The notes: generated from the sequence alone by a model not told the origin. A stretch of DNA of 64,000 nt from Clostridia bacterium (GCA_017530505.1 JAFXMI010000022.1:7283-71282); one strand, 5' to 3'; positions 1,070 through 51,766 are shown, numbered from the stretch's first letter. Numbers and translations are program-made.

Positions 1070-1940
1070 CTATAATAAGTCAGATGTCTTAGTAAAAATA
1101 TTTGCTCCTTCAAAAATTAATCTATTTGTACCGCAAAATTTTTCATCATAAATACTTCCGTGGTGCTGCAAAAATGTCTTTTCCTTGATCTAATCCGTAT
1201 CCAACAGTAATCATTGTACCGCTTTTATCTCCAGCTTCTGTTACTAAAATTTTATTAGCTAAACCTGAAACAATTCTGTTTCGTTCTAAAAAATAATATG
1301 GCTTTGCTTTTGTTCCAACAATATATTCTGAAATAACTAATCCATTGTTTTGAATTATTTTATTATAAAGACCAACATTATTTCTAGGATAAATATCCTG
1401 ATTTGATAAACCATTTGCTAGTACAGCAATTGTTTTTCCATATTTTCCTTGTAAACTTCCAAGATGTGCAAAACTATCAACTCCATTTGCCATCCCACTT
1501 ACAGTATTAATATTTAAATTACTAAGTTCTTTTGCAGTTTCAAATGCAATTTTTTTACCATAATTACTAGAATTTCTTGCTCCTATTATTGCAATACATT
1601 CTTTTTTAAGTATTTCAATATTTCCCTTTGCAAAAATATATATAGGTGCATCAAGTATATTTTTTAAGCTATTTGGATATTCTTTACTATTAATAAAAAT
1701 CTGTATTATTTTATTCTGTTCCATATATTTTTGATATTTTTCTAATCCAATTTTATTGTTTTTTTCCAAAAATTTTTCTATTGAAACAGTTTTTAATCCT
1801 AATTTTATATATTTTTCTTCAGTAAAATAAAAAATCTCTCGTGTTGTAAAATTTTCGTATAATTTTGCTTTTATTCTGTTTGCAACTTTAACTCTTGCAA
1901 ACCATATATCATAAATATTATTCAAAATCTCTCCTTCCAT
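1070..1940 (-). CDS. dprA: DNA processing protein DprA; the frame moves +1 at CGG 1158-1160
   Basis: The 264-aa track ORF carries GMANGVDSFAH and ends AAPRKYL* just after CCA CGG AAG. The +1 frame continues GSIYDEKFCGTNRLIFEGANIF...* to TAG at 1070-1072, which is the conserved DprA C-terminus. Confidence 0.85.
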
Positions 1941-2065
1941 TTTATAAAGTTTTCATATTATTACTATTTTTTTCAAATTTAAGCAATAAAAATTTCCTTA
2001 AATACAATTTTTACAAGAATATTTGCTTAAGATTATAAGCAATAAGATAAATTTAGAATTTTTAA

Positions 2066-2096
2066 TAAAATATCATAACTAAGTTATGATATCAAT
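2066..2096 (-). terminator. Putative intrinsic terminator downstream of yvcK
   Basis: 10-bp perfect hairpin atatcataac/gttatgatat, followed on the minus strand by a T-rich run. Confidence 0.45.
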
Positions 2097-2119
2097 AAAT
2101 CTTCTTTTTGTTTAATTTT

Positions 2120-3080
2120 TTATTTCTGTCTCATTAAATATGAAAAAATTAGCGAACTAATTTTTAAACTATTATGTTTTATAGTTCCATCTTGAGTTGT
2201 AACAAGATCATCTTCAATAAGTTCATATTTTTTATTATTTATATTTTGATAATCTATTTTTACTGGTTCTTTTTGTTCCTCATCTGCATATTTTTCAATT
2301 ATTTTATTAGAAAGTTTTGTATTACTTGCAATAACAACATCTATAACATTTTCTCCAATATATTGTTCTAAACAATCCACGTGATCAGAAACACCAAATC
2401 CATCTGTTTCTCCTGGTTGAGTCATAACATTACATATATACATTACTTTTGCTTTTGAATTTTTTATAGCTTCACTAACATCTTTACAAATAATATGTGG
2501 CATTACAGAAGTATACAAACTACCTGTAGAAATAATAATCAAATCTGCTTTGTTTAAAGCATTAGTAACCTCTTTTAATACATGAGGCTCTTCCTTATAA
2601 AAAAACTTTTTATACTTTTTCCCGGCACTTGTAATTTCTTCTTCACCTTCTATAACTTCACCTTCCGTTGTTTCAGCCATTAAGGTTAAATAATCTTCTG
2701 ATAAAGGAAGAACTGTTGCTTTCACATCTAAAATTTTACTTAAATACTCAATACTTGTTTTTAAGCTACCTGTTTCATTTATTAAAGAAGTTAAAACAAG
2801 ATTTCCTAAAGCATGACCGATTTAATTCACTTTTTGCTTTTAATCTATATTCCATAACATCTCTAACTTCATTTGGTAATGTAGAAAGATTGCTTAAAAC
2901 TTTTCTTATATCTCCAACAGCTGGAGTTGAAAATTCTTTCCTTAATCTTCCTGTACTTGAACCATTATCAGAAACAGTAATTACACATGTTAAATCAATA
3001 GGGAAATATTTTAATCCCCTTACTATATAAGATGTTCCAGTTCCACCACCTAAAATAACCACTTTTTTATTTTGTTGCAT
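2120..3080 (-). CDS. yvcK: YvcK/CofD-family gluconeogenesis factor; the frame moves +1 at CGG 2817-2819
   Basis: N-terminal ORF has KVVILGGGTGTSYIVRGLK...VSDNGSSTGRLR. After AAT CGG the +1 frame reads GHALGNLVLTSLINETGSLKTSIEYLSKILDVKATVLPLSED, joining ORF 2120..2725. ATG at 3080. Confidence 0.85.
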
Positions 3081-3146
3081 TTCAAATTCCTTTTCCGCCA
3101 TTGGTTTCGTAAATAAATAACACAACCAAAATAGCCCTATTGTTTT

Positions 3147-3689
3147 TTATTTTAAATAATTTGATAATTCATTATAGCATTCATCTCTTTCAACAAGAAT
3201 TTTTTTAACCCTCATTTCATTTAATTCACTCAAACTAACAAATTTCGTTTTTTGTACTTCATCTTCTTGTAATTTTAGAACATTCTGATTTAAACCTTTT
3301 TTTCTCAATATAAAAAAGTCAGAGTATTGTCTATCTATATGATTTTCATTTACAAATTCTTCTTTTCTAAATGAAAAAATATATCTAAACTTCTTTATTT
3401 CTGTCTCCTCACTTAAATCTAATCCAATTTCCTCATTTATTTCACGTATAGTAGCTTGTAATGAATCTTGACCTGAAATTATATGTCCAGCTACAGATAT
3501 ATCCCACATATCAGGATTTTTATCTTTTTTATGACTTCTTTGCTGAATTAATATTTCATTGTTTTCATTAATAATTGCTACAATAATTATTCTATGCCAT
3601 AAACCTTTTTTATGTACTTCTCTTCTTGGTAATATTTCACCGGTTTTAATTCCATTTTCATCTATAACATCTATCATTTCTTCTTGCAT
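3147..3689 (-). CDS. NUDIX hydrolase
   Basis: Nudix box GHIISGQDSLQATIREINEEIGL in the 180-aa ORF. Confidence 0.8.
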   Translation of the reverse strand: MQEEMIDVIDENGIKTGEILPRREVHKKGLWHRIIIVAIINENNEILIQQRSHKKDKNPDMWDISVAGHIISGQDSLQATIREINEEIGLDLSEETEIKKFRYIFSFRKEEFVNENHIDRQYSDFFILRKKGLNQNVLKLQEDEVQKTKFVSLSELNEMRVKKILVERDECYNELSNYLK

Positions 3690-3906
3690 TTCTTATCTCC
3701 TAAACTATATCTTTAAAAAGCTTTAGTATTTTTCAAAAATTCCTTTAGCCTATCATTTATATTTAGATTTATTTTCCCTCATATAAATCAATATACTTTA
3801 TAATTATATCATAATCTTTTATAAAAGTATAGATAATAAATCTTTTTTTGTATTTTCTCTTGAAGTATTTATAAAAAAATGGTAAAATTCTAATATTAGA
3901 ACATTT

Positions 3907-3981
3907 TGGGGTGTAGCCAAGCGGTAAGGCAGACGGCTCTGACCCGTCGATGCGTAAGTTCGAATCTTACCACCCCAGCCA
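3907..3981 (+). tRNA. tRNA-Gln (anticodon CUG) with encoded CCA
   Basis: Cloverleaf read by hand. Acceptor TGGGGTG/CACCCCA, anticodon stem GACGG/CCGTC with loop CTCTGAC, T-arm GTAAG-TTCGAAT-CTTAC, discriminator G, then CCA. Confidence 0.85.
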
Positions 3982-4055
3982 AAGCTATCTTATTATTAGA
4001 TTTTTTCTGTAATTTATCTATCGCCCCAATTGCACAGAAAGGAATTATTTTAAAG

Positions 4056-4985
4056 ATGTCAAAAATTTCTATAATAGTTTCATGTTATAATGAAGAAAAA
4101 GCTCTTCCTTTATTTTATGAAGAAGTTGAAAAAAACATAAAAGAATTTAAAAATACAGAATTTGAATATATTTTTGTTAATGATGGTTCTCAAGATAAAA
4201 CTTTAGAGGTAATAAAAAAATTAAGAAAAAAGGACAAAAAAATTAAATATTTATCTTTTTCTAGAAATTTTGGAAAAGAATCTGCAATGTATGCAGGTTT
4301 AGAACATACTACAGGAAATTATGTTACTTTTATGGATGCTGATTTACAAGATCCTCCTTCACTATTAAAAGAGATGTACGAAATAGTTACTAAAGAAGAA
4401 TATGATGCAGTTGGTACAAGAAGAGTAACACGTAAAGGTGAACCAATAATTAGAAGTTTTTTTGCTCGAATGTTTTATAAGCTAATAAACAAAATCTCAA
4501 AAGTTCAAATTGTTGATGGAGCTAGAGATTTTATTTTAATGAGTAAACCTGTTGCAGATGCTCTTCTTTCATTAAAAGAATATAATCGCTTTTCAAAAGG
4601 ATTATTTAATTTTGTTGGTTTTAAAGTAAAATGGATTGAATTTGAAAATGTTGAAAGAATAGCTGGAGAAACAAAATGGTCATTTTGGAAACTTTTTAGA
4701 TATGCAATAGAAGGAATAACGGCATTTTCCACAGCACCGCTTGTTTTTTCTTCTTTTATTGGATTGTTTTTCTGTTTAATTTCATTTTTACTAATATTAG
4801 TTATAATTATTAAAACATTAATTATGGGAGATCCAACCAGCGGTTGGCCTAGTTTAGTATGTATAATTTTTATGGTCAGTGGAATTCAATTATTTTCACT
4901 TGGAATAATTGGAAAATATCTATCAACAACATACCTTGAAGTAAAAAAAAGGCCTATTTATATTATTAAAGAAAAAGATATTTAA
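4056..4985 (+). CDS. Family 2 glycosyltransferase, GtrB/CsbB-like polyprenol-phosphate sugar transferase
   Basis: From M51 of the track ORF: MSKISIIVSCYNEEKALP...VNDGSQDKT...FMDADLQDPP, plus two C-terminal TM helices. The upstream part of the track ORF overlaps the tRNA. Confidence 0.85.
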   Translation: MSKISIIVSCYNEEKALPLFYEEVEKNIKEFKNTEFEYIFVNDGSQDKTLEVIKKLRKKDKKIKYLSFSRNFGKESAMYAGLEHTTGNYVTFMDADLQDPPSLLKEMYEIVTKEEYDAVGTRRVTRKGEPIIRSFFARMFYKLINKISKVQIVDGARDFILMSKPVADALLSLKEYNRFSKGLFNFVGFKVKWIEFENVERIAGETKWSFWKLFRYAIEGITAFSTAPLVFSSFIGLFFCLISFLLILVIIIKTLIMGDPTSGWPSLVCIIFMVSGIQLFSLGIIGKYLSTTYLEVKKRPIYIIKEKDI

Positions 4986-4994
4986 ATTGTTGTA

Positions 4995-5384
4995 CTAAAA
5001 AACATTTTTAAATGTTAAATTATATTTTCTTTCGATATGCTTTAGAAGAAGTTTTGTTTCTGCAATATCTTCTAAGGCATTTTGATTTTCCTCATTTTTT
5101 ACATTTTCTACAATTGTTGTTATCTTTAAACTAACTTTTTCGGCTACTTCATGCTCTACAAAAAAGGATAATTTATTTTCAGTTTTTTCCCAATTATTCT
5201 TAAGTTCTTTAGCCATCTTATTAATTTCTTTTTCATTTTTTTCTAAAATTCTATTTTCTAATTTACCTAAATCATTTATTATATCTTCCATTAATTTATT
5301 TGTTTTAAAAAACAAAAATAAGTCTAATAATATAACTATTATTAAAATAAAAAAAATTAAAAACATTTTTTTAGAATTTTCCAA
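4995..5384 (-). CDS. DUF4363-family small membrane protein
   Basis: N-terminal TM helix then a helical Lys/Glu-rich domain. TTG start with RBS AAGGAGA. Paired with a DUF421 gene, as is common in Firmicutes. Confidence 0.65.
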   Translation of the reverse strand: MENSKKMFLIFFILIIVILLDLFLFFKTNKLMEDIINDLGKLENRILEKNEKEINKMAKELKNNWEKTENKLSFFVEHEVAEKVSLKITTIVENVKNEENQNALEDIAETKLLLKHIERKYNLTFKNVF

Positions 5385-5395
5385 AATTAATCTCC

Positions 5396-6071
5396 TTATT
5401 TATTTTCTTTTTTCTGCGCAAAAATACTTTTATCACCGTCCTTGAGCAACTATTAAAGCTTCTTCAGGTTCAAATCCAAATTTTTTTACTTCCTTTTTAA
5501 GCCAATTATAATCTTTACCTAAAATCTTTAAATTTTCATACATAACTTGTCCATCTAAAACTAAATCATAAGCAATTCCTTCGTATTCTGCATTTATATC
5601 CAAATCTTCTGTTTTTAAAGCTCTTTTTTCAGGTTTTAAAATAATATTTAATTGTCCATTAGTTTCTAAAATTGCAAATTCTATATCACCAATATTTGTA
5701 ACGCCATACGCTCTTAATCTTTCTTCTAATTCATTTAAAGACATAGATTCCTTTCTTAATGCTTCTTCAACAATTTTTCCACTATGAATTATAATTCTAG
5801 GTTTTCCGCAAATAATACCTCTTAAAATAATACTTTTTACATTTATAATAGATAAAATCATATGCATAAATAATAAACCTAAAATTGGAACAATTCCATT
5901 TAAAAGAGGAATTCCTGAATCTTGCATTGGAATAGTTGATAAATTTGCAATAATCATAGAAATTACAAATTCAAATGGTTGTAATTGGCTGATTTCACGT
6001 TTTCCCATAAGTCTCATAACTATTAAAACATTTATATATAAAATTATGCTTCTTACAAAAATTAAAAGCAT
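5396..6071 (-). CDS. DUF421 (YetF-like) membrane protein; the 3' end is ambiguous (5433 if CGG is read as a sense codon, 5396 if +1 at CGG 5436-5438)
   Basis: The 212-aa ORF has N-terminal TM helices and a YetF-like C-domain. It ends GGA CGG TGA. The +1 frame adds GDKSIFAQKKENK* and ends inside the RBS of the next gene. Confidence 0.7.
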
Positions 6072-8379: not shown

Positions 8380-9646
8380 TTAGAAAGTCGTGCTCAAACG
8401 GACATAGTCGTTACCATCAACATTGATGCAGTTCATAGAGCCACAGTCGAAGCTGACGCTATACACATAGACTGGACTGCCCTGCGAATAAAGCAAGTAC
8501 CATGGACTGCCCTGCGAAGAAGACCAGTACCAGTCACTTAACCCTTTATTTTCATAATTGCTTGAGGTTATTCCAAGTTCTTCGCAGAAAGCACTCCACT
8601 CTGATTTTGATGGAATAAACCATTTTTTACTATCTAATGCTGTACTTACTATGTTATATTGACCATCTTGAATTGCTCCCCATAAATCAATATAATCTTT
8701 TCCAGAAGAAGCTGTTGTTTGTTCTCCATATTTTGCTGTATTGTTATTCCAGTCATTTATCATATCTATTGTTTTTTGCTTTCCTTCGCCAAAGTCATTT
8801 GCAGAACCTTCTATTTGTCTATCTAATTTTCCATTTGCATTATAATACCAATAAAAAATATCATTAGAATTATTTGTAAAATCTTCAAGCGTCATTACAT
8901 AAAATCTATCTTTTGTACCACTTGAATTTGTTGCAGGAACTAGCACCTCTTTTTCTCCAAATCCTTCATTTGCTTTATATATTCCTGCTGTTGTTTGTCC
9001 TGCATAGGTTTTAGTAGATACAACATAATCTTTTACGCTTGTTACATCATCTATTTTCGTAACATTATAATCTGACCATCCTCCAGTATCATTATTCCAA
9101 CGTCCACTTTTTGTATTTCCAACTACCATATCTGCATATATTATTCCATCTACATCTCCATCATTATCTATATCTGCATAATATCCTACATAACTGTCTG
9201 TTTTTTCTGTTGATTTTGCTATAGTCGTTTCTTTTACTTCTTTCTTTATTGTTACGCCATCTAGTACCTCAGATAATTTTACGGTATATTCACCACTTTT
9301 TGTTTTCATTACCTGATTTAAATCTGATAAGTCTTCTGGTATAGTATCTTCTTTAAAATATGTTCCTAAAATTTCTTTTATTTTTGTTTCTGTTGGATCT
9401 TCTCCTTTTTTGTCTGCTAACTCCCCTAATATGTCTAATCTTGTTTGCTCTACTATTTGGTTCTTGTCTGTTATTTCTTTTGCTTCTGTCGCTTTTTGCA
9501 AAATACCATTATCACCAGATAACATTGATATAGAAATTCCGAGCTAAAATAAGTAAAACGATAACTGTAATAACTAATGCAATCAAAGTAATACCAGCAC
9601 TTTGCACGTTTTTATTTTTTCTCTTTTTCAATTGATTTTTTCCCAT
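8380..9646 (-). CDS. Secreted pilin-like-leader protein with a DUF1566-like C-terminal domain; the frame moves +1 at CGG 9539-9541
   Basis: ATG at 9646 gives MGKNQLKKRKNKNVQSAGITLIALVITVIVLLILA, then GCT CGG. The +1 frame gives GISISMLSGDNGILQKATEAKE, joining the 381-aa ORF. The C-terminus (WFIPSKSEW...YWSSS...VRLS) resembles DUF1566. Confidence 0.7.
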
Positions 9647-9700
9647 TTTCTTCCTCTTTCTTGTCTTTGGTTAAAAGACATATAATTAATGTTTATATAA

Positions 9701-9729
9701 TGTATAATATTTTATTATTTATATGTCAA
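9701..9729 (-). promoter_or_regulatory. Sigma-A-type promoter for the pilin-like gene
   Basis: Minus strand reads TTGACA (9729-9724), 17 nt, TATACA (9706-9701). Confidence 0.5.
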
Positions 9730-9844
9730 CATCTCTAAAATACCCGTGTGTGTGCACGTGCGTGCATACAGCCCAAATGGTTTGCTATCTTTTGCTCATA
9801 TTATTACTTTCTCCTTTTTTCTTTTGTATTATTATTTTATAAAT

Positions 9845-9873
9845 AAAAAACACTTTTGGCAAGTGTTTTTTTG
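9845..9873. terminator. Bidirectional intrinsic terminator
   Basis: aaaaaacactt-ttggc-aagtgttttttt: hairpin with an A-run and a T-run. Confidence 0.7.
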
Positions 9874-9899
9874 TTTTTTATTTTTCATTTTTTAAATAT

Positions 9900-10008
9900 T
9901 TGTTACAATTCACGGCCGATGTCTTTTTATTTAGCTGAAACATATACAATTTAGTTTTATATATGTTTCAGTTTTTAATAAATTTATATAAGCCATGAAT
10001 TGTAACTA
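9900..10008. repeat. Intergenic element bounded by inverted GTTACAATTCA arms (copy A), with an inner 12-bp hairpin
   Basis: Left arm ttgttacaattcacgg, right arm ccatgaattgtaac (14-nt inverted repeat, one mismatch). Inner stem ctgaaacatata/tatatgtttcag. The same arms recur at 31738-31861. Confidence 0.6.
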
Positions 10009-10062
10009 TTATAATTGTTTATTATACAATACGAAAGTTATAATTTTTTATGTAATAATAAT

Positions 10063-10113
10063 ATAAAAAGTTCTCAATAAGTGATAAGTTTTACACTTAA
10101 TAGAACTTTTTAT
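10063..10113 (-). terminator. Putative terminator of the cotJ operon
   Basis: 12-bp stem ataaaaagttct/agaactttttat about 30 nt downstream of the cotJC stop. Confidence 0.5.
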
Positions 10114-10144
10114 ATTAAACAATTATATAGCTATTAGTATTTTA

Positions 10145-10384
10145 TTAATTTGTATAAAATTTCTTTTGAGAAAGTTTATCTTGAACACTATTTAAAGCTT
10201 CTCCAAATCTTTGGAAATGAACAATTTCTCTTGCTCTTAAAAATCTCAAAACATTTACAACATCTGGATCATCTTTACAAAGATCTATTAGTTTTTCATA
10301 AGTTGCTCTTGCTTTTTGTTCTGCTGCTAAGTCTTCTGTTAAATCTGCAACAGGATCTCCTTTAACTGCAATTGTAGCTGCTGT
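10145..10384 (-). CDS. cotJC: cotJC 3' segment (C-terminal ~79 codons of a manganese-catalase-family spore coat protein), separated from its 5' segment
   Basis: Not in the track because it has no start codon. Minus-strand translation: (T)AATIAVKGDPVADLTEDLAAEQKARATYEKLIDLCKDDPDVVNVLRFLRAREIVHFQRFGEALNSVQDKLSQKKFYTN*. This matches the C-terminal half of CotJC/Mn-catalase. Confidence 0.85.
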   Translation of the reverse strand, partial: TAATIAVKGDPVADLTEDLAAEQKARATYEKLIDLCKDDPDVVNVLRFLRAREIVHFQRFGEALNSVQDKLSQKKFYTN

Positions 10385-10405
10385 TATTTTAAGGATATAT
10401 TTTTA

Positions 10406-12028
10406 TTAACTAGTAATATTTGAAAAAACAAGCTTTAAATTTATATTATGATTACTATCAAATTCAATTTTATCTATCAATTTACACAATAGCTGTTTAT
10501 TTATATTATTTGATTTTAAAAACTCATCAGATAGCTTTTTTATTTGATCATAGCTTATTTTATATCTTGATCTTTCAGTATTGATTCTTTTATCTAAGTC
10601 AATAATTTGCTTTTTACAATTTTCAATCTCATTTTCTTTTTGTTCTTTTATTGATAAAAATGTTTCATTATTAATTATGTTTTCAAGCTTATCATTATAT
10701 ATAGTTTTAATTTGTTCAATTAGTTTATCCATTTTTAAGCTTAATCTTTGTTTATCTTCTTCTAATCTATGACATTCATAATTAATACTCTTTTCAAGAT
10801 TATCCATAACTGCTTTTATATCATTATCATTAAAAATTATTTTTTTACATTCTTTTTCTATTATTGGAATTATAATTTTATATAATTTTTTACTGCTTAT
10901 AGATTTGGTATTGTTACATTTCTTATTTATACCTTTGTTTGCTTCTGAACATATGTAAGAATTGATTTCACATTTTTTGCCACTTTTAGAAAGCTTTTCT
11001 TTATGTTTTAATGTTGAAATACTACCACAGTCTTTGCAATAAATTAAACCTTTAAAAATATCATCATATTTTCTATTTCTATTGTTCTTAAATCTTTCTT
11101 TTAAACTTTGGCATTTATTAAATGTTTCTATGTCAATTATTGGTTCGTGTGTATTTTCAACAATTATTTGATTTTCTTTTTTATTTATAATTCTTTCTTT
11201 TCTCCTAAAGCTTGGTTTTACTGTTTTCGCTCCTACCATTGTTCCAACATATACAGGATTACTTACAATTCTTGTTATTGTAATTTCTCTCCACCCATCA
11301 AGGTTGGATGAAACTCCTTTTATTTTTAAATATTCTCTAGGTGGTATAATATTTCTCTTATTTAAATTTTTTACAATTTCTGTACGAGTATATCCTTTTG
11401 AATACTTTTCAAAAATTTCCTTAATAATAGATGATACATCATTATCAATTATTAACTTATTTTTATTATTGGGACTTTTTTTATAACCATATGGAGCAGT
11501 ATTGCCTTGAAATAATCCTTGCTTTGCTTTTGCAATTTTTACTGCCTTAATCTTTCTTGATGTTTCTTTTGGATATTGTTCACTCATTACAGCTTTAAAA
11601 GGAATAAAATCATCATCTTCTTTGTAATATGTATCAATTGTATCTTCTGTTGCAGTAATAAATCTAACTTTTTTTAATGGAAAATATTCTTGATAATATC
11701 TAAGAACTTCATTTGTTTTACGACCTAGTCTTGTTAAATCTTTTACAACTACCATATTTATCATTTCGTTTTCAATATCACTAATCATTTCTATAAAACC
11801 TGGTCTATTAAAATTTGTTCCTGTATATCCATCATCTGTATAATCTTTGATAATTATAAATCTATTTTGTGGCTCTTTTTTAGAAAGTTCAGCTACATAT
11901 TGTCTTAATATTTTATCTTGATTAGATATACTTTCACTTTCTTTTTTTCCATCATTATCATCTCTTGATAATCTTTTATATAATCCAACATAGAATTGCT
12001 TTTCATATATGTTGTCTAACTTTTGCAA
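10406..12028 (-). CDS. Large serine recombinase (resolvase domain, recombinase domain, zinc ribbon and coiled-coil)
   Basis: N-terminal YVGLYKRLSRDDNDGKKESESISNQ catalytic-serine motif. Cys clusters CKDCGS...C and a long coiled-coil C-terminus. 540 aa, TTG start with RBS AGAGGGAGG. No CGG codons. Confidence 0.9.
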   Translation of the reverse strand: MQKLDNIYEKQFYVGLYKRLSRDDNDGKKESESISNQDKILRQYVAELSKKEPQNRFIIIKDYTDDGYTGTNFNRPGFIEMISDIENEMINMVVVKDLTRLGRKTNEVLRYYQEYFPLKKVRFITATEDTIDTYYKEDDDFIPFKAVMSEQYPKETSRKIKAVKIAKAKQGLFQGNTAPYGYKKSPNNKNKLIIDNDVSSIIKEIFEKYSKGYTRTEIVKNLNKRNIIPPREYLKIKGVSSNLDGWREITITRIVSNPVYVGTMVGAKTVKPSFRRKERIINKKENQIIVENTHEPIIDIETFNKCQSLKERFKNNRNRKYDDIFKGLIYCKDCGSISTLKHKEKLSKSGKKCEINSYICSEANKGINKKCNNTKSISSKKLYKIIIPIIEKECKKIIFNDNDIKAVMDNLEKSINYECHRLEEDKQRLSLKMDKLIEQIKTIYNDKLENIINNETFLSIKEQKENEIENCKKQIIDLDKRINTERSRYKISYDQIKKLSDEFLKSNNINKQLLCKLIDKIEFDSNHNINLKLVFSNITS

Positions 12029-12073
12029 TTTAACCTCCCTCTCTTAAAGTTTAGACAACCATTTATAATTCAC

Positions 12074-12102
12074 ATTATAACAAACAAATCTCGTTTCGTG
12101 AA
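12074..12102 (-). promoter_or_regulatory. Candidate promoter of the recombinase gene
   Basis: Minus strand reads TTCACG, 17 nt, TGtTATAAT (extended -10), about 45 nt upstream of the TTG start. Confidence 0.4.
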
Positions 12103-12125
12103 GACTTTTCTTTTACTTTAAATTG

Positions 12126-12240
12126 TTCAGTTTTTTAGAAACGTAAAGATTTGTTGTGCGAAAAATTGCAAAGCAATTTTTCTGTGCATTTGTCTTATTC
12201 TTATATAATAGTAAATGAATTTTACTATTATATAAGAATG
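12126..12240. repeat. Structured repeat unit 1 (conserved leader, 10-bp hairpin, CTGTGCA, then a ~19-bp AT-rich hairpin)
   Basis: ..acgtaaagatttgttgtgcGAAAAATTGCaaaGCAATTTTTCtgtgca.. then attcttatataatagtaaa/tttactattatataagaat. Confidence 0.7.
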
Positions 12241-12259
12241 TAAAGTTGTAAATGGCGAC

Positions 12260-12373
12260 CTAAATTTTTTCAAGAATTTTTTTAGCACAATATTCTTCAA
12301 ATATTTCAAGCATAATATTTTTTAAATCTTTATCGTTATATTGAATAGTTATATTGTAATTTTCAGTTTTCAA
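12260..12373 (-). CDS. Hypothetical 37-aa protein lying between repeat units 1 and 2
   Basis: TTG start 9 nt after GAAGAGGTG. Translation (M)KTENYNITIQYNDKDLKNIMLEIFEEYCAKKILEKI*. No recognisable family. Confidence 0.3.
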   Translation of the reverse strand: MKTENYNITIQYNDKDLKNIMLEIFEEYCAKKILEKI

Positions 12374-12432
12374 ATATATACACCTCTTCTAACAAATTTC
12401 GCTTTGAGAGAACTTTATAATATTATTAATTA

Positions 12433-12550
12433 TTCAGCTTTATATCTCGAAAAGCGTAAAAATTTGTTGACGCGAAAATTTACTTTTGTAAATTTTCTGT
12501 GCAACTGTTTTAATTAATTATATGAAAGCATTTTCATATAATTAATTAAA
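12433..12550. repeat. Structured repeat unit 2
   Basis: ..agcgtaaaaatttgttgacgcGAAAATTTACttttGTAAATTTTCtgtgca.. then a 20-bp stem ttaattaattatatgaaa/tttcatataattaattaa. Confidence 0.7.
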
Positions 12551-12610
12551 TATTGTTTAATTTAATGTTTATTCATAAAACCCAAAGTGCAAATATTATT
12601 TTTATGCGCG

Positions 12611-12646
12611 CTAAAAAGCAGAAGCCAATTTTCTTGACTTCTGCTA
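12611..12646 (-). terminator. Intrinsic terminator after the RCC1-like gene
   Basis: Minus strand: agcagaag-loop-cttctgct followed by TTTTT. Confidence 0.6.
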
Positions 12647-12774
12647 AAAATATAATATTTGATAGTAATACTATACCACATAAAAATTGCTATTTAAACT
12701 GCAGGATTTTGCAATGTTTTTGCAAAATATTATGTATATTAATTTCAAAAAATCCTAATTTATATACATATTTT

Positions 12775-14119
12775 AATCAGCCATAGTTGACATACTAGGA
12801 TCAATTACAATATTCTTTTCATACGAATTATCAATATTATTATCTATACCGATTTATGGCATGAAACTCTTTTATTGTTTCATCTTCCTTTATTCCTAAT
12901 GCCCCTTTTTCGCTTTTTCCTAATCTATACATTGTATTATTATTATCAACTATTATCGCATACTTCTTTGCAATAGATACTAATTTTACATTTTCTATAT
13001 TTATTTTTTTGCTTGTATAGTAAAATAATCTGTATATGGCTCTGTTTCTGCTAAGTTATCTATTGTAAATCCCATATTATATAATGTTCCATCTTGTTTA
13101 AGTAATAAATTATTTCTATTTTCTATTCCATTTTCAATACTTTTTATATCATTTAAAATAAATGTATTTTTAAAGTATAAATTATTCTTATCATCAATAA
13201 TAAAATATGTGTAGCCTTCATTTGATTTAATATATTCTGTAAATATTATATCTTTTATATTATTTATATATTTATTAAAATCCGTTTTATTTATTTCATT
13301 ACTCTTTTTTGTTTCTATTGAATATACAATTCCATCATTTTTTATTATAAAATCTTCATCTATGTTAGGATAACCTACAATTTTAGAAACATTACTAATT
13401 TCTATTTCAACAGGCTCTCTAGCCCATCCATTAATTTGTTCTGTTATTCCACCACATGAATGTCCAACTACTAGATATTTATCGTTTTCGTTAGTTTTAA
13501 AATAATATCTATCTCCTGTTAAAAATATATCTATAATCCTATAATTATCAATTTTTAATATTTTATTTTCTCCATTATAATATCTTGAATTAGATGCGTA
13601 TCCAAAGTAATATGCTATATTATTATTGCTTAAAGCAACAACTTGAAAATTATTGACATATATTTTTTTAATGTTTTCTACTTCTAATTGAGTTGGAATA
13701 TCAGATAAACCATCTATAGTATTTCTTCCTAATTGTCCATATTCATTACCACCCCAAGAATATATATGTCCATATTTATCTAAGGCGATAACAAAATTAC
13801 TACCTACTCCAATTTGCTCTATATTATTTAATTTTAACTTTGAAAATTTTTCTACTTGCATTCCATATTGATATCCACTTTTACTTGAATAGTGATAATT
13901 TGCACCTGCTACCCAAACACTCCCATCTTCATATAATATAACTGTATATGTATCTCCTGTTTGTAAATCTTTTATATTTTTATAACCATTTATAAATTTT
14001 TCTTCATCAAAAATTTGTTATTTTTCTTGTTCAGTCTCAATATTTATCATATTTTTCATTATAAAAAAAGCACCTATCAATAATATAAATACAAGTATTA
14101 TTATAATACTTTTCTTCAT
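12775..14119 (-). pseudogene. RCC1/beta-propeller-repeat secreted protein, disrupted
   Basis: Signal/TM start at 14119 (RBS AGGAGAGAG). RCC1-like blades such as YSWGGNEYGQLGRN. Lesions: in-frame TAA near 14020, a frame change in an A7 run near 13008-13016, and a CGG +1 site at 12849-12851. Confidence 0.75.
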
Positions 14120-50368: not shown

Positions 50369-50447
50369 TCTAATAAGTATATAGCAAAAATGTTAATATA
50401 TTATTTATTAAAAAATTTTTGTCTGATATTTAGTATAAAGAACAAAA

Positions 50448-50494
50448 GAGGCACATTTAAAATACTCTATCATTTTTGAAAAGTTATGTGCCTC
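50448..50494 (+). repeat. Conserved post-gene hairpin (copy 2), 3' of the SPFH gene
   Basis: gaggcacat...atgtgcctc. Same orientation relative to its upstream gene as copy 1. Confidence 0.65.
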
Positions 50495-50496
50495 GT

Positions 50497-50599
50497 CTTT
50501 GTTCGCCCGCGAAAAATTCTTTAGAATTTTTCTGTGGAAATTTGGCGAAGCCTTTATATTATAGGAAGTTCGGGGAACTTTCCTATAATATAAAAAAGG
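50497..50599. repeat. Structured repeat unit 3 (same family as 12126-12240 and 12433-12550)
   Basis: tctttgttcgcccgcGAAAAATTCtttaGAATTTTTCtgtgga.. then a long hairpin tttatattataggaagttc/gaactttcctataatataaa. Confidence 0.65.
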
Positions 50600-50632
50600 A
50601 ATTTCTTAGATTACAAGAAATTTCCTTTTTTG
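50592..50632. terminator. Bidirectional intrinsic terminator between convergent genes
   Basis: aaaaaaggaatttctt-agattac-aagaaatttcctttttt. Confidence 0.75.
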
Positions 50633-50637
50633 TTTTA

Positions 50638-51766
50638 TTAATAAATTATAATTTCTTTAAGAGCTTTTATAAATTCTCTTACTTCTTCAATAGTATTATA
50701 TTTACCAAAAGTAATTCTAATTGAACTTTTAGCAAGACTTATAGGTACCCCTATTTCTAATAATACTGGTGATGCTTTTATAAATCCAGCACTACAAGCT
50801 GATCCACTTGATACACATATTTCTCTTTTATCTAACTCTTCTAAAAGCTTTGCTCCATCTACTCCGTGGAAAAGAAACATTTAAATTCCCTGGTAATCTA
50901 TTTTCCATGTCTCCATTTATTCTAATATTTGGAAAATTATCTTTTAGTTCTTTTAAACAATAATCTCTTAAATTTTTTAAATAAATTTGATGTTCTTTTA
51001 AATTTTTTGTTGCAATTTCTAAAGCTTTTCCTGTTCCTATAATTCCTGCAACGTTTTCTGTTCCAGCTCTCATCTCTTTTTCTTGGTGTCCACCATCTTG
51101 AATACGCATAAAATTAACATTTGATTTCATATATAAAACGCCTATCCCTTTGGGACCATAAAACTTATGAGAAGACATTGAAAGGCTAGATATATTCATC
51201 TCTTTTACATCAATTTTTACATTTCCAACTGCCTGAACGCTATCTGTATGAAAATAAATACTATATTTTTTAGCAATCTCGCCTATTTCCTTTATTCTCT
51301 GAATAGTTCCAATCTCATTATTTGCAAACATAATTGATATTAAAATTGTTTTTTTAGTAATAGCTTTCTCTATATCTTTAGGATCTACTATTCCATTTGC
51401 TCTAGGTTTTATATAAGTTACTCTAAAACCAAATCTTTCAAGAAATTTACACGTATTCAAGATTGCTGGATGTTCAAAACTAGAAGTAATTATATGATTA
51501 CCAAATTTTGAATTTGCAAATGCAATCCCCTTTAATGCTAAATTATCACTTTCGCTTCCACCACTTGTAAAATAAATCTCATTAACATTTGCATTTATAC
51601 AATTAGCAACCCTCATTCTTGCAAGCGTAATTGCTTCTTTATTTTTTTTACCAATTGAATAGAGTGCTGATGGATTTGCATAATTATCTACTAAATATGG
51701 TACCATTTCTGCTAATACATTTTCATCAAGCCTTGTAGTAGCGCTATTATCAAAGTATTTTATCAT
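50638..51766 (-). CDS. Cysteine desulfurase (NifS/IscS-like); the frame moves +1 at CGG 50864-50866
   Basis: The 312-aa ORF has SGGSESDN and SMSSHKFYGPKGIG PLP motifs and ends ..NLNVSFPRSRW..*. The +1 frame after CCA CGG gives GVDGAKLLEELDKREICVSSGSACSAG.., which contains the catalytic Cys loop. Confidence 0.88.

Follow-up and report, generated by a model that had tools for sequence, protein, structure and literature searches.

The 64,000-nucleotide (nt) stretch of Clostridia bacterium DNA analyzed here (GCA_017530505.1, JAFXMI010000022.1:7283-71282; hereafter the window, with positions counted from its first letter) carries three copies of a structured repeat, each of which folds into three hairpins. 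We consider it probable that these units represent a mobile element, non-coding and non-autonomous, that has become dispersed over the chromosomes of one clade of uncultured gut Clostridia. The repeat is multicopy, intergenic and polymorphic between related genomes, and it inserts seamlessly, without duplication and in a fixed orientation with respect to an asymmetric target. Its unusual feature is that the last of the three hairpins, P3, is completed by the target DNA; the object is otherwise an ordinary interspersed structured repeat.

Architecture of the repeat units

The pattern GAAAA-N-TTTTCTGTG matched three times in the window, each time on the + strand, where 0.01 matches are expected by chance, and no shuffle gave three. 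All the elements that an initial annotation of this DNA had listed for the three units are present in the sequence, as is the 37-codon open reading frame (ORF) that it placed between units 1 and 2. The common layout it described stands, but the complete unit is larger than the annotation had it. Folding of extended sequences gives three hairpins per unit (P1, P2 and P3) and a length of about 151-153 nt in the window, P1 being a conserved hairpin that had gone unrecognized. P1 is a long bulged stem with outer arms (G)AACAAA.../...TTTGTT(C), a 3-nt bulge on the 3' side and a copy-specific inner stem, which covaries from CGTTTC/GAAACG in unit 1 to CGCTTT/AAAGCG in unit 2 and GAGGCACAT/ATGTGCCTC in unit 3. 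What had been taken at 12083-12100 for an inverted partial copy of a leader is really the 5' arm of P1 in unit 1. P2 is the 10-bp hairpin already described, CG-GAAAA...TTTTC-U-GUG. P3 is a long AT-rich palindrome, said by the annotation to differ in sequence in each copy while always remaining self-complementary. The self-complementarity is confirmed, whereas the sequences are not unrelated: the units have the core TATAG[G/T]AAA...TTT[C/A]CTATA in common, and the outer base pairs are made with the host flank.

Unit 1 (12082-12232, + strand, 151 nt) has P1 at 12083-12155, P2 at 12156-12187 and the P3 core from 12204; it is defined by its fold, by a covariance-model match of 56.6 bits and by boundaries taken from unit-free homologous recombinase cassettes (L172 and L176). 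Its P3 hairpin of 19 bp spans 12197-12239 (+), with perfect 19-nt arms at 12197-12215 and 12221-12239. Unit 2 (12390-12542, +, about 153 nt, with ends placed to within 2 nt) comprises P1 at 12390-12469, P2 at 12471-12501 and P3 at 12509-12550, the perfect 19-nt arms of which lie at 12509-12527 and 12532-12550; the fold, a covariance-model match of 45 bits and comparison with L176 and L160 support it. On its P1 side it directly adjoins the ribosome-binding site of the 37-codon ORF. Unit 3 (50440-50590, +, 151 nt) consists of P1 at 50440-50504, P2 at 50507-50537 and P3 at 50553-50594, and is supported by the fold, by a match of 133 bits and by an exact empty allele described below. It lies in the 3' untranslated region (UTR) of an SPFH gene, immediately before a host bidirectional terminator. 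Compared with shuffles, the folding energies of units 1, 2 and 3 correspond to z = -8.1, -8.0 and -6.4, respectively. A full-sensitivity covariance-model scan with filters off revealed no copy in the window beyond these three.

Family size and structural covariation

A pattern scan of one genome per species matched at least 119 stretches, of which 103 were supported by the covariance model and 16 were chance matches. The model was built from 25 diverse copies, with the structure set manually on a subfamily alignment; a MAFFT alignment of all subfamilies together mis-registers P1 and leaves RNAalifold with P2 and P3 only. Such a covariance-model search had been proposed in the initial annotation; it found 143 matches in 100 sources, so that further copies and strong covariation are both present. 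The supported stretches belong to about 30 metagenome-assembled genomes (MAGs) that carry the label uncultured Clostridia or Clostridium sp. and were obtained from the gut of rabbits, humans, mice and goats. The clade has a GC content of about 25-30% (about 25% in the window genome), and the family unit measures 150-175 nt with 22-34% GC. In the MAG CANRGE01 alone, 17 loci contain at least 22 copies, a good number of which are almost identical and stand in different contexts; CANPZM01 and CAOKGO01 are likewise rich in copies.

In the MAFFT alignment of 25 copies, 94.1% of the cells are paired, as compared with 45-55% in slid controls, 18 pairs are changed on both sides, and none of 500 shuffles reaches this. 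The argument that pairing preserved under changed sequence speaks for a folded single strand rather than a duplex protein-binding site is thus upheld. The model-fitted alignment of 143 copies, which leans towards the structure because it is fitted to the model, has 93.5% of its cells paired (40-53% in slid controls) and 37 of 41 pairs changed on both sides, again unmatched in 500 shuffles. The stems of P1 and P3 are nearly pure Watson-Crick: the count is 295 pairs with one G·T and one A·C in P1, and 1031 pairs with four G·T and eight A·C in P3. The base of P2 has a conserved G·U in 116 of 133 copies, plus U·G variants.

The family also has reduced forms. In deletion derivatives P1 is fused directly to P3, and solo P3-like palindromes occur as well, some of them between two head-to-head units (L006 at about 6089, L014 at about 4167, L011 at 1413-1440, L072 at 6762 and 6915, and L047 at 2243). 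A short P2-P3 form was considered as a further variant and rejected, the apparent cases being contig edges or copies with a degraded P1. Many metagenome contigs end inside a repeat unit, among them L026, L060, L087, L090, L100, L102, L157 and L158, and the family thereby fragments assemblies of these species.

A description of the three-hairpin family was not found in Rfam or in the literature searched, which is not proof of absence. Rfam 15 has no family that matches the repeat: the window gives only a tRNA at gathering score, and at E <= 10 the region 11900-12900 gives chance-level matches only. Phage records hold no DNA match to the repeat, and four pattern matches in viral contigs were discarded as chance, being without covariance-model support. 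Scanning of metagenome contigs returned no other copies of the unit-1 lineage; exact-protein look-ups were in some cases without match and in others returned the same contigs only.

Empty sites and seamless insertion

In each of four orthologous intergenic regions compared between species, the presence of a unit differs. For unit 3, contig L147, from another sample, is otherwise 99% identical to the window and is without exactly the 151 nt of the unit. The empty site reads ..GTATAA(A)^TAAAAAAGGAATTTCTT...AAGAAATTTCCTTTTTT, and in the filled site GAACAAAAG...CCTATAATA is inserted into otherwise the same sequence. A single A (1 nt) is ambiguous at the junction, there is no target-site duplication, and the insertion is seamless. 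A target-duplication model and a shared-core recombination model were both discarded as incompatible with this exact empty site. The comparison with L147 places the landing site of unit 3 directly before the A-tract of the host bidirectional terminator in the SPFH 3' UTR. This terminator, TAAAAAA-GGAATTTCTT...AAGAAATTTCC-TTTTTT at 50591-50631, served as the target of unit 3, and the empty allele has it intact.

The sites of the other two units are seen in relatives. For unit 1, L172 reads ..CATTATAAC^TAAAGAATGTAAAG where the window has AAACAAATC...CTATTATA, and for unit 2, L176 reads ..CACCTCTT^TAAATAAATATTGTT where the window has TAACAAAT...TTTCATATAAT. Units 1 and 2 entered independently of each other, both of them in the regulatory region of the conserved operon that the 37-codon ORF and the recombinase gene form. 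The initial annotation had offered three roles for the units: a small-RNA family, subterminal hairpins of a non-autonomous element, and regulatory or accessory sites for the recombinase. The second fares best, on the number of copies per genome, their near-identity within a MAG, their variable presence and the seamless empty site.

Target preference and genomic context

A flank logo was compiled from 75 distinct copies. On the left, position -1 is A in 83% of them; on the right, after ...CCTAT(A/T)ATA, the bases T-A-A-A-A-A-A occur at 83, 87, 93, 75, 85, 85 and 75%. In the orientation of the unit the target is therefore ..(A)TA^TAAA(AAA), and on the other strand insertion falls directly after TTTA or a T-run. 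The strand with TTTA^ is usually the U-tract side of an intrinsic terminator, and all three sites in the window fit the TAAA-type target. In at least 23% of copies, the 45 nt that follow P3 contain a hairpin resembling a terminator; the figure is 1% in controls and 4.5% upstream of P1. Among near-identical copies in one MAG, about half have such a hairpin after P3.

The copies are intergenic, with 2 of 75 overlapping an ORF of at least 120 amino acids (aa). Relative to the unit, the two flanking genes are both on the opposite strand in 39 cases and both on the same strand in 7, with 10 convergent and 5 divergent pairs. The + strand of the unit lies on the C-rich strand in 60 of 75 copies and in all three copies of the window; gene direction and GC skew are confounded in this orientation bias (39 versus 7; 60/75). 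A preference for T/A-tract targets would explain both the orientation bias and the proximity to terminators. Head-to-tail arrays with the junction CCTATAATA|GAACAAA occur at L018, L081 and L099. Each insert restores the ATA^TAAA junction at its 3' end, and re-use of this junction would account for the arrays.

Completion of P3 by the host flank

The P3 palindrome regularly extends past the insertion boundary, its inner partner being element sequence 5' of the P3 core and its outer partner the host flank. In unit 1 the putative guide ATTCTTA (12197-12203) pairs over 7 nt with the host flank TAAGAAT (12233-12239), which is already found in unit-free relatives as TAAAGAAT or TATAGAAT. In unit 2 the internal segment TTTAATTA (12509-12516) pairs over 8 nt with the host flank TAATTAAA (12543-12550), and in unit 3 the internal TTTA pairs over 4 nt with the flanking TAAA. 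For all three units the paired host flank exists already in unit-free or empty relatives, and the outer 4-8 bp of the P3 hairpins in the window thus join element sequence to host sequence. It is this completion by the host flank that makes the long hairpin 'different in each copy but always self-complementary'.

The same holds across the family. Past the boundary the pairing has a mean length of 4.9 nt; with permuted flanks the mean is 3.15 nt, and in 2000 permutations it never exceeded 3.84 nt. Where a flank base deviates from the TAAAAAAA consensus, the inner arm pairs with it in 24 of 75 cases, as against the 12.7 ± 2.9 expected. Further examples of pairing between inner arm and flank are seen at L040 (+), L047, L058, L059 and L074, and at L014 a 27-bp stem reaches into the host terminator, an internal T-to-C change perfecting the pairing. 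No signal was found for complementarity of the left flank to internal segments.

Proposed movement as a folded single strand

In the mobile-element reading that we favor, the element would move as a folded single strand, most likely of DNA, and its hairpins would be recognized by an enzyme supplied in trans. The insertion site would be chosen or fixed by pairing of the internal guide with the target, following the 'peel-and-paste' logic of the IS200/IS605 family. We propose tentatively, as a possibility that we would not yet call probable, that a segment of 4-9 nt beside P3 pairs with the target strand, that host DNA thereby completes the terminal hairpin, and that a trans-acting enzyme carries out a programmable, duplication-free insertion. 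This enzyme would be a divergent HUH protein or something undescribed, the geometry and the guide length being distinct from those of IS608. Guide-directed targeting, annealing of a 3' tail and rewriting of the inner arm after insertion are all compatible with the flank pairing.

Several observations weigh against the mobile-element reading. A motif screen of about 1.1 Mb around the copies detected no Y1-like ORF, and the proteins around the family loci include no recurrent family beside the copies that could be the enzyme. Units with P2 and no P3 were considered as autonomous copies and rejected, as they are truncations beside host genes. P1 (GAACAAA...) and P3 (TATAGGAAA...) are unrelated in sequence, while the end hairpins of IS608 are similar to each other; the guide geometry is likewise unlike that of IS608, with pairing of up to 9 nt and with guide and target flanking the hairpin. 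Subfamilies resembling unit 3, with P1 beginning GAACAAAAG, pair over just 4 nt, yet they sit before long A-runs. The sequences at L014 and L081 suggest that the inner arm may be rewritten to match the flank after insertion. The evidence on the strand conflicts, as the G·U and U·G pairs of P2 favor folding of the + strand and the target logic favors the other. There is a single exact empty site, the two others coming from relatives with a recombinase 82-90% identical to that of the window, and the case for mobility is drawn from DNA sequence.

Comparison with known elements

The closest known systems by mechanism are the IS200/IS605 elements and their non-autonomous derivatives of the PATE type, for which IS608 is the paradigm (PMC3201880, PMC5027513). 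IS608 is cleaved in a strand-specific manner at subterminal hairpins, and its cleavage and target sites are read by guides at the foot of the hairpins; it forms a single-strand circle with abutted ends and inserts 3' of a tetranucleotide, with no DNA gained or lost, preferring the lagging-strand template (PMC3201880). The repeat likewise has no inverted terminal repeats and no target duplication, and carries hairpins at both ends. Its insertion is specific for strand and orientation, falling immediately 3' to the short T-rich TTTA^ of one strand. Beside the foot of its terminal hairpin, an internal segment pairs with the flank in what may be a contact of guide and target or cleavage region, its orientation bias would be in keeping with the lagging-strand template, and the junctions in its arrays are like abutted right and left ends. 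The differences are also clear. The hairpins at the two ends of an IS200/IS605 element are similar and bound by one TnpA dimer, whereas P1 and P3 are not alike. The putative guide of the repeat is 4-9 nt long and is a plain Watson-Crick extension of the stem, with the target on the far side of the hairpin. The repeat has in P2 an additional conserved hairpin at its center, neither a Y1 transposase nor an autonomous copy was detected around the repeat copies, and the preference for A/T-runs exceeds what the guide explains. Given the unrelated end hairpins, the different geometry and length of the guide and the failure to find a Y1 transposase or autonomous copy, membership of the repeat in the IS200/IS605 family is not established.

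By phenotype the closest analogue is bcr1 of the Bacillus cereus group, a repeat of about 155 bp that has been described as a mobile sequence of a special class (PMC3184786). The likeness, which is one of description, lies in a non-coding Firmicute repeat of about 150 nt with a distribution that is not conserved between strains and with compensatory changes that keep independent stem-loops. bcr1 has 5-bp direct repeats on its flanks and two stem-loops instead of three, whereas the exact empty site shows no direct repeats for the three-hairpin element. As in the latter, the target of bcr1 is T-rich, TTTAT.

BOX, RUP and SPRITE of the streptococci and REP/BIME sequences with RAYT are likewise multicopy, intergenic and hairpin-forming (PMC3184786, PMC3333891, PMC3733652), and they resemble the repeat in their partial and mosaic forms, such as the solo P3-like hairpins and deletion derivatives, and in their proximity to terminators. 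REPs are 20-40 nt long, GC-rich and tagged GTAG or CGTC (PMC3733652), in contrast to a repeat of 150-175 nt with 22-34% GC and no tag. RUP and the classical miniature inverted-repeat transposable elements have terminal inverted repeats and duplications. The latter class was rejected for the repeat, which begins GAACAAA..., ends ...CCTATAATA, and has neither inverted repeats nor a duplication. None of the BOX, RUP, SPRITE and REP sequences is reported to build part of a hairpin from the flank of its insertion.

Alternative explanations

The strong covariation of three hairpins could also arise in a functional RNA family, whether of multicopy small RNAs or of cis-acting UTR elements, if the fold were under selection and the copies grew in number by duplication. 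The conserved G·U at the base of P2 and its one-sided U·G and A·U variants fit pairing on the + strand. Unit 3 and the copy at L114 lie between a stop codon and a terminator and would be transcribed in + orientation, many copies are followed by a host terminator able to end a + strand transcript, and for bcr1, the analogous repeat of Bacillus cereus, transcription has been reported (PMC3184786). Against such an origin, promoter and terminator scans gave no signal conserved inside the repeat, and the flanks of the copies diverge exactly at the repeat ends. Most copies are antisense to both neighboring genes, orthologous intergenic regions differ in the presence of a unit, the stems of P1 and P3 are almost without G·U pairs, at 1 in 305 and 4 in 1047, part of P3 is host sequence, and no Rfam family matches. 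The small-RNA role suggested in the initial annotation thus keeps its covariation and is disfavored on the other counts. We regard a functional RNA as an unlikely explanation of the family as a whole; such a role is possible for some copies, and unit 3 is certainly within a 3' UTR.

Domestication is compatible with a mobile origin. Repeats of the REP/BIME or SPRITE kind might serve to reinforce terminators, stabilize mRNA or insulate, and the intergenic copies close to terminators, the long stable palindrome beside U/A tracts and the occurrence of solo P3-like hairpins all accord with this. However, the P3 hairpin has no T-run after it on either strand and is therefore not a canonical terminator. 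The presence or absence of units between strains argues against a needed function at given sites, and one copy disrupts a promoter. We judge domesticated repeats of this kind to be rather improbable.

A third alternative, to which we give little credence, is an element resembling short interspersed elements (SINEs), in which a + transcript, with its RNA 3' end annealed to the target, would be copied by reverse transcription primed at a nicked T-tract with its 3'-OH. The T-tract on the opposite strand, the 3' junction with microhomology or an annealing-like overlap to the target, the precise 5' end without obligatory duplication and the transcription of unit 3-type positions in + orientation would all fit. 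On the other hand, no reverse transcriptase was seen near the copies, and there is no internal promoter and no series of 5'-truncated copies, the short matches being contig edges or degraded P1, and target duplications are absent. The A-run is host sequence in the exact empty site and hence not a poly(A) tail. We know of no bacterial precedent for an RNA-mediated element of this SINE-like type.

The recombinase cassette

The large serine recombinase gene at 10406-12028 (- strand; Resolvase, Recombinase and Zn_ribbon_recom domains) is a neighbor of the repeats and not their partner. That the units are sites of this enzyme, whether accessory or regulatory, as the initial annotation had allowed, or for recombination, has in its favor the position of two copies immediately upstream of the gene, one on either side of its small partner ORF, and the overlap of a promoter-like site with the P1 arm of unit 1; this reading, the least credible of the four, is essentially refuted, as homologous cassettes with a recombinase 82-90% identical and the same 37-aa ORF have no unit, as a homologue of the recombinase occurs in just 2 of 119 loci among the matches listed and adjoins a unit in neither, and as unit 3 and about 140 other copies lie in ordinary chromosomal intergenic regions.

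Homologues 74-90% identical to the recombinase of the window are common, and in none of the 82-90% identical cassettes fetched (L160-L176) was a unit found. The relatives are distant in phage records (at most 38% identity) and in viral contigs (about 25% identity). The 37-codon ORF (12260-12373, -) lies between units 1 and 2 and outside the repeat. It is called as a gene 81-152 nt upstream of the homologous recombinase genes in L166-L176 (3295-3408 in L166, 3304-3417 in L172, 1235-1348 in L175 and 1306-1419 in L176); in the L160 group it is not called, but the DNA contains this frame too. Its product reads MEKVNYKIKIEY..QIFEEYCAN.ILRKV in the relatives and LKTENYNITIQY..EIFEEYCAKKILEKI in the window, and no Pfam family matches it. 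Its conservation beside unit-free recombinase homologues makes it a true partner gene and the units later insertions. The product may be a directionality factor or a regulator of the recombinase.

In L172, L176 and L160 the ancestral recombinase promoter reads TTTACA-N17-TATAAT/TATACT. In the direction of the recombinase gene, unit 1 splits this promoter between the -35 TTTACA and the -10 TATAAT, and the ancestral -35 now stands at 12252-12247, about 150 nt further off. A consensus scan gives a candidate hybrid promoter at 12074-12102 (-), TTCACG-N17-TGnTATAAT, in which the host -10 TATAAT (12079-12074) has a TGn extension and the -35-like TTCACG (12102-12097) comes from the P1 arm of unit 1. 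Unit 1 has probably replaced the old -35 by a weaker hybrid promoter. In relatives, the cassette of 37-aa ORF and recombinase lies inside or against an Mn-catalase (cotJC-like) gene beside cotJA and cotJB (L166/L167 at 1373-5405; L176 at 3106-3912), a placement that resembles the 'skin'-type intervening elements of sporulation.

Two further features of the cassette region were noted. Upstream of the cassette, an intrinsic terminator, AGCAGAAG...CTTCTGCT followed by a T-run (12613-12649, -), is conserved together with the cassette promoter region in all homologous recombinase cassettes. The 880 nt at 9526-10405, which lie downstream of the recombinase gene, are without ORFs, and a GC-rich patch within them (...cccgtgtgtgtgcacgtgcgtgcatacagccc... 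near 9.74 kb) could be an attachment site or another element.

Beyond the small island around the recombinase, the window is ordinary chromosome (Dxs, PolC, UvrC, UppS, PyrH and others). A prophage spanning 12-48 kb with units at its ends was considered and rejected, as the genes there are these chromosomal housekeeping genes. PolC (34776-39153, -) appears as two adjacent ORFs, one of 324 aa with the PolC N-terminal domain II and one of 1125 aa with the PHP, exonuclease and polymerase domains. The gene for a class-V aminotransferase (cysteine desulfurase-like) that adjoins unit 3 (50638-51766, -) is likewise divided by the gene calls of all strains fetched, into ORFs of 312 aa and about 80 aa that overlap; the split could be a frameshift, a pseudogene or recoding.

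Implications

In annotation, these repeats, if unrecognized, would be taken wrongly for small-RNA genes, recombinase sites or terminators. For the lineage of the window, the split promoter of a recombinase with skin-like relatives means that control of excision may differ from that in its relatives. For the family, dozens of copies per genome, polymorphism between strains and a hairpin part supplied by the target make up a natural data set for hairpin-guided insertion of a single strand. Should a dedicated enzyme exist, uncultured gut bacteria would possess, in the repeat and its enzyme, a compact insertion system that can be programmed by sequence.

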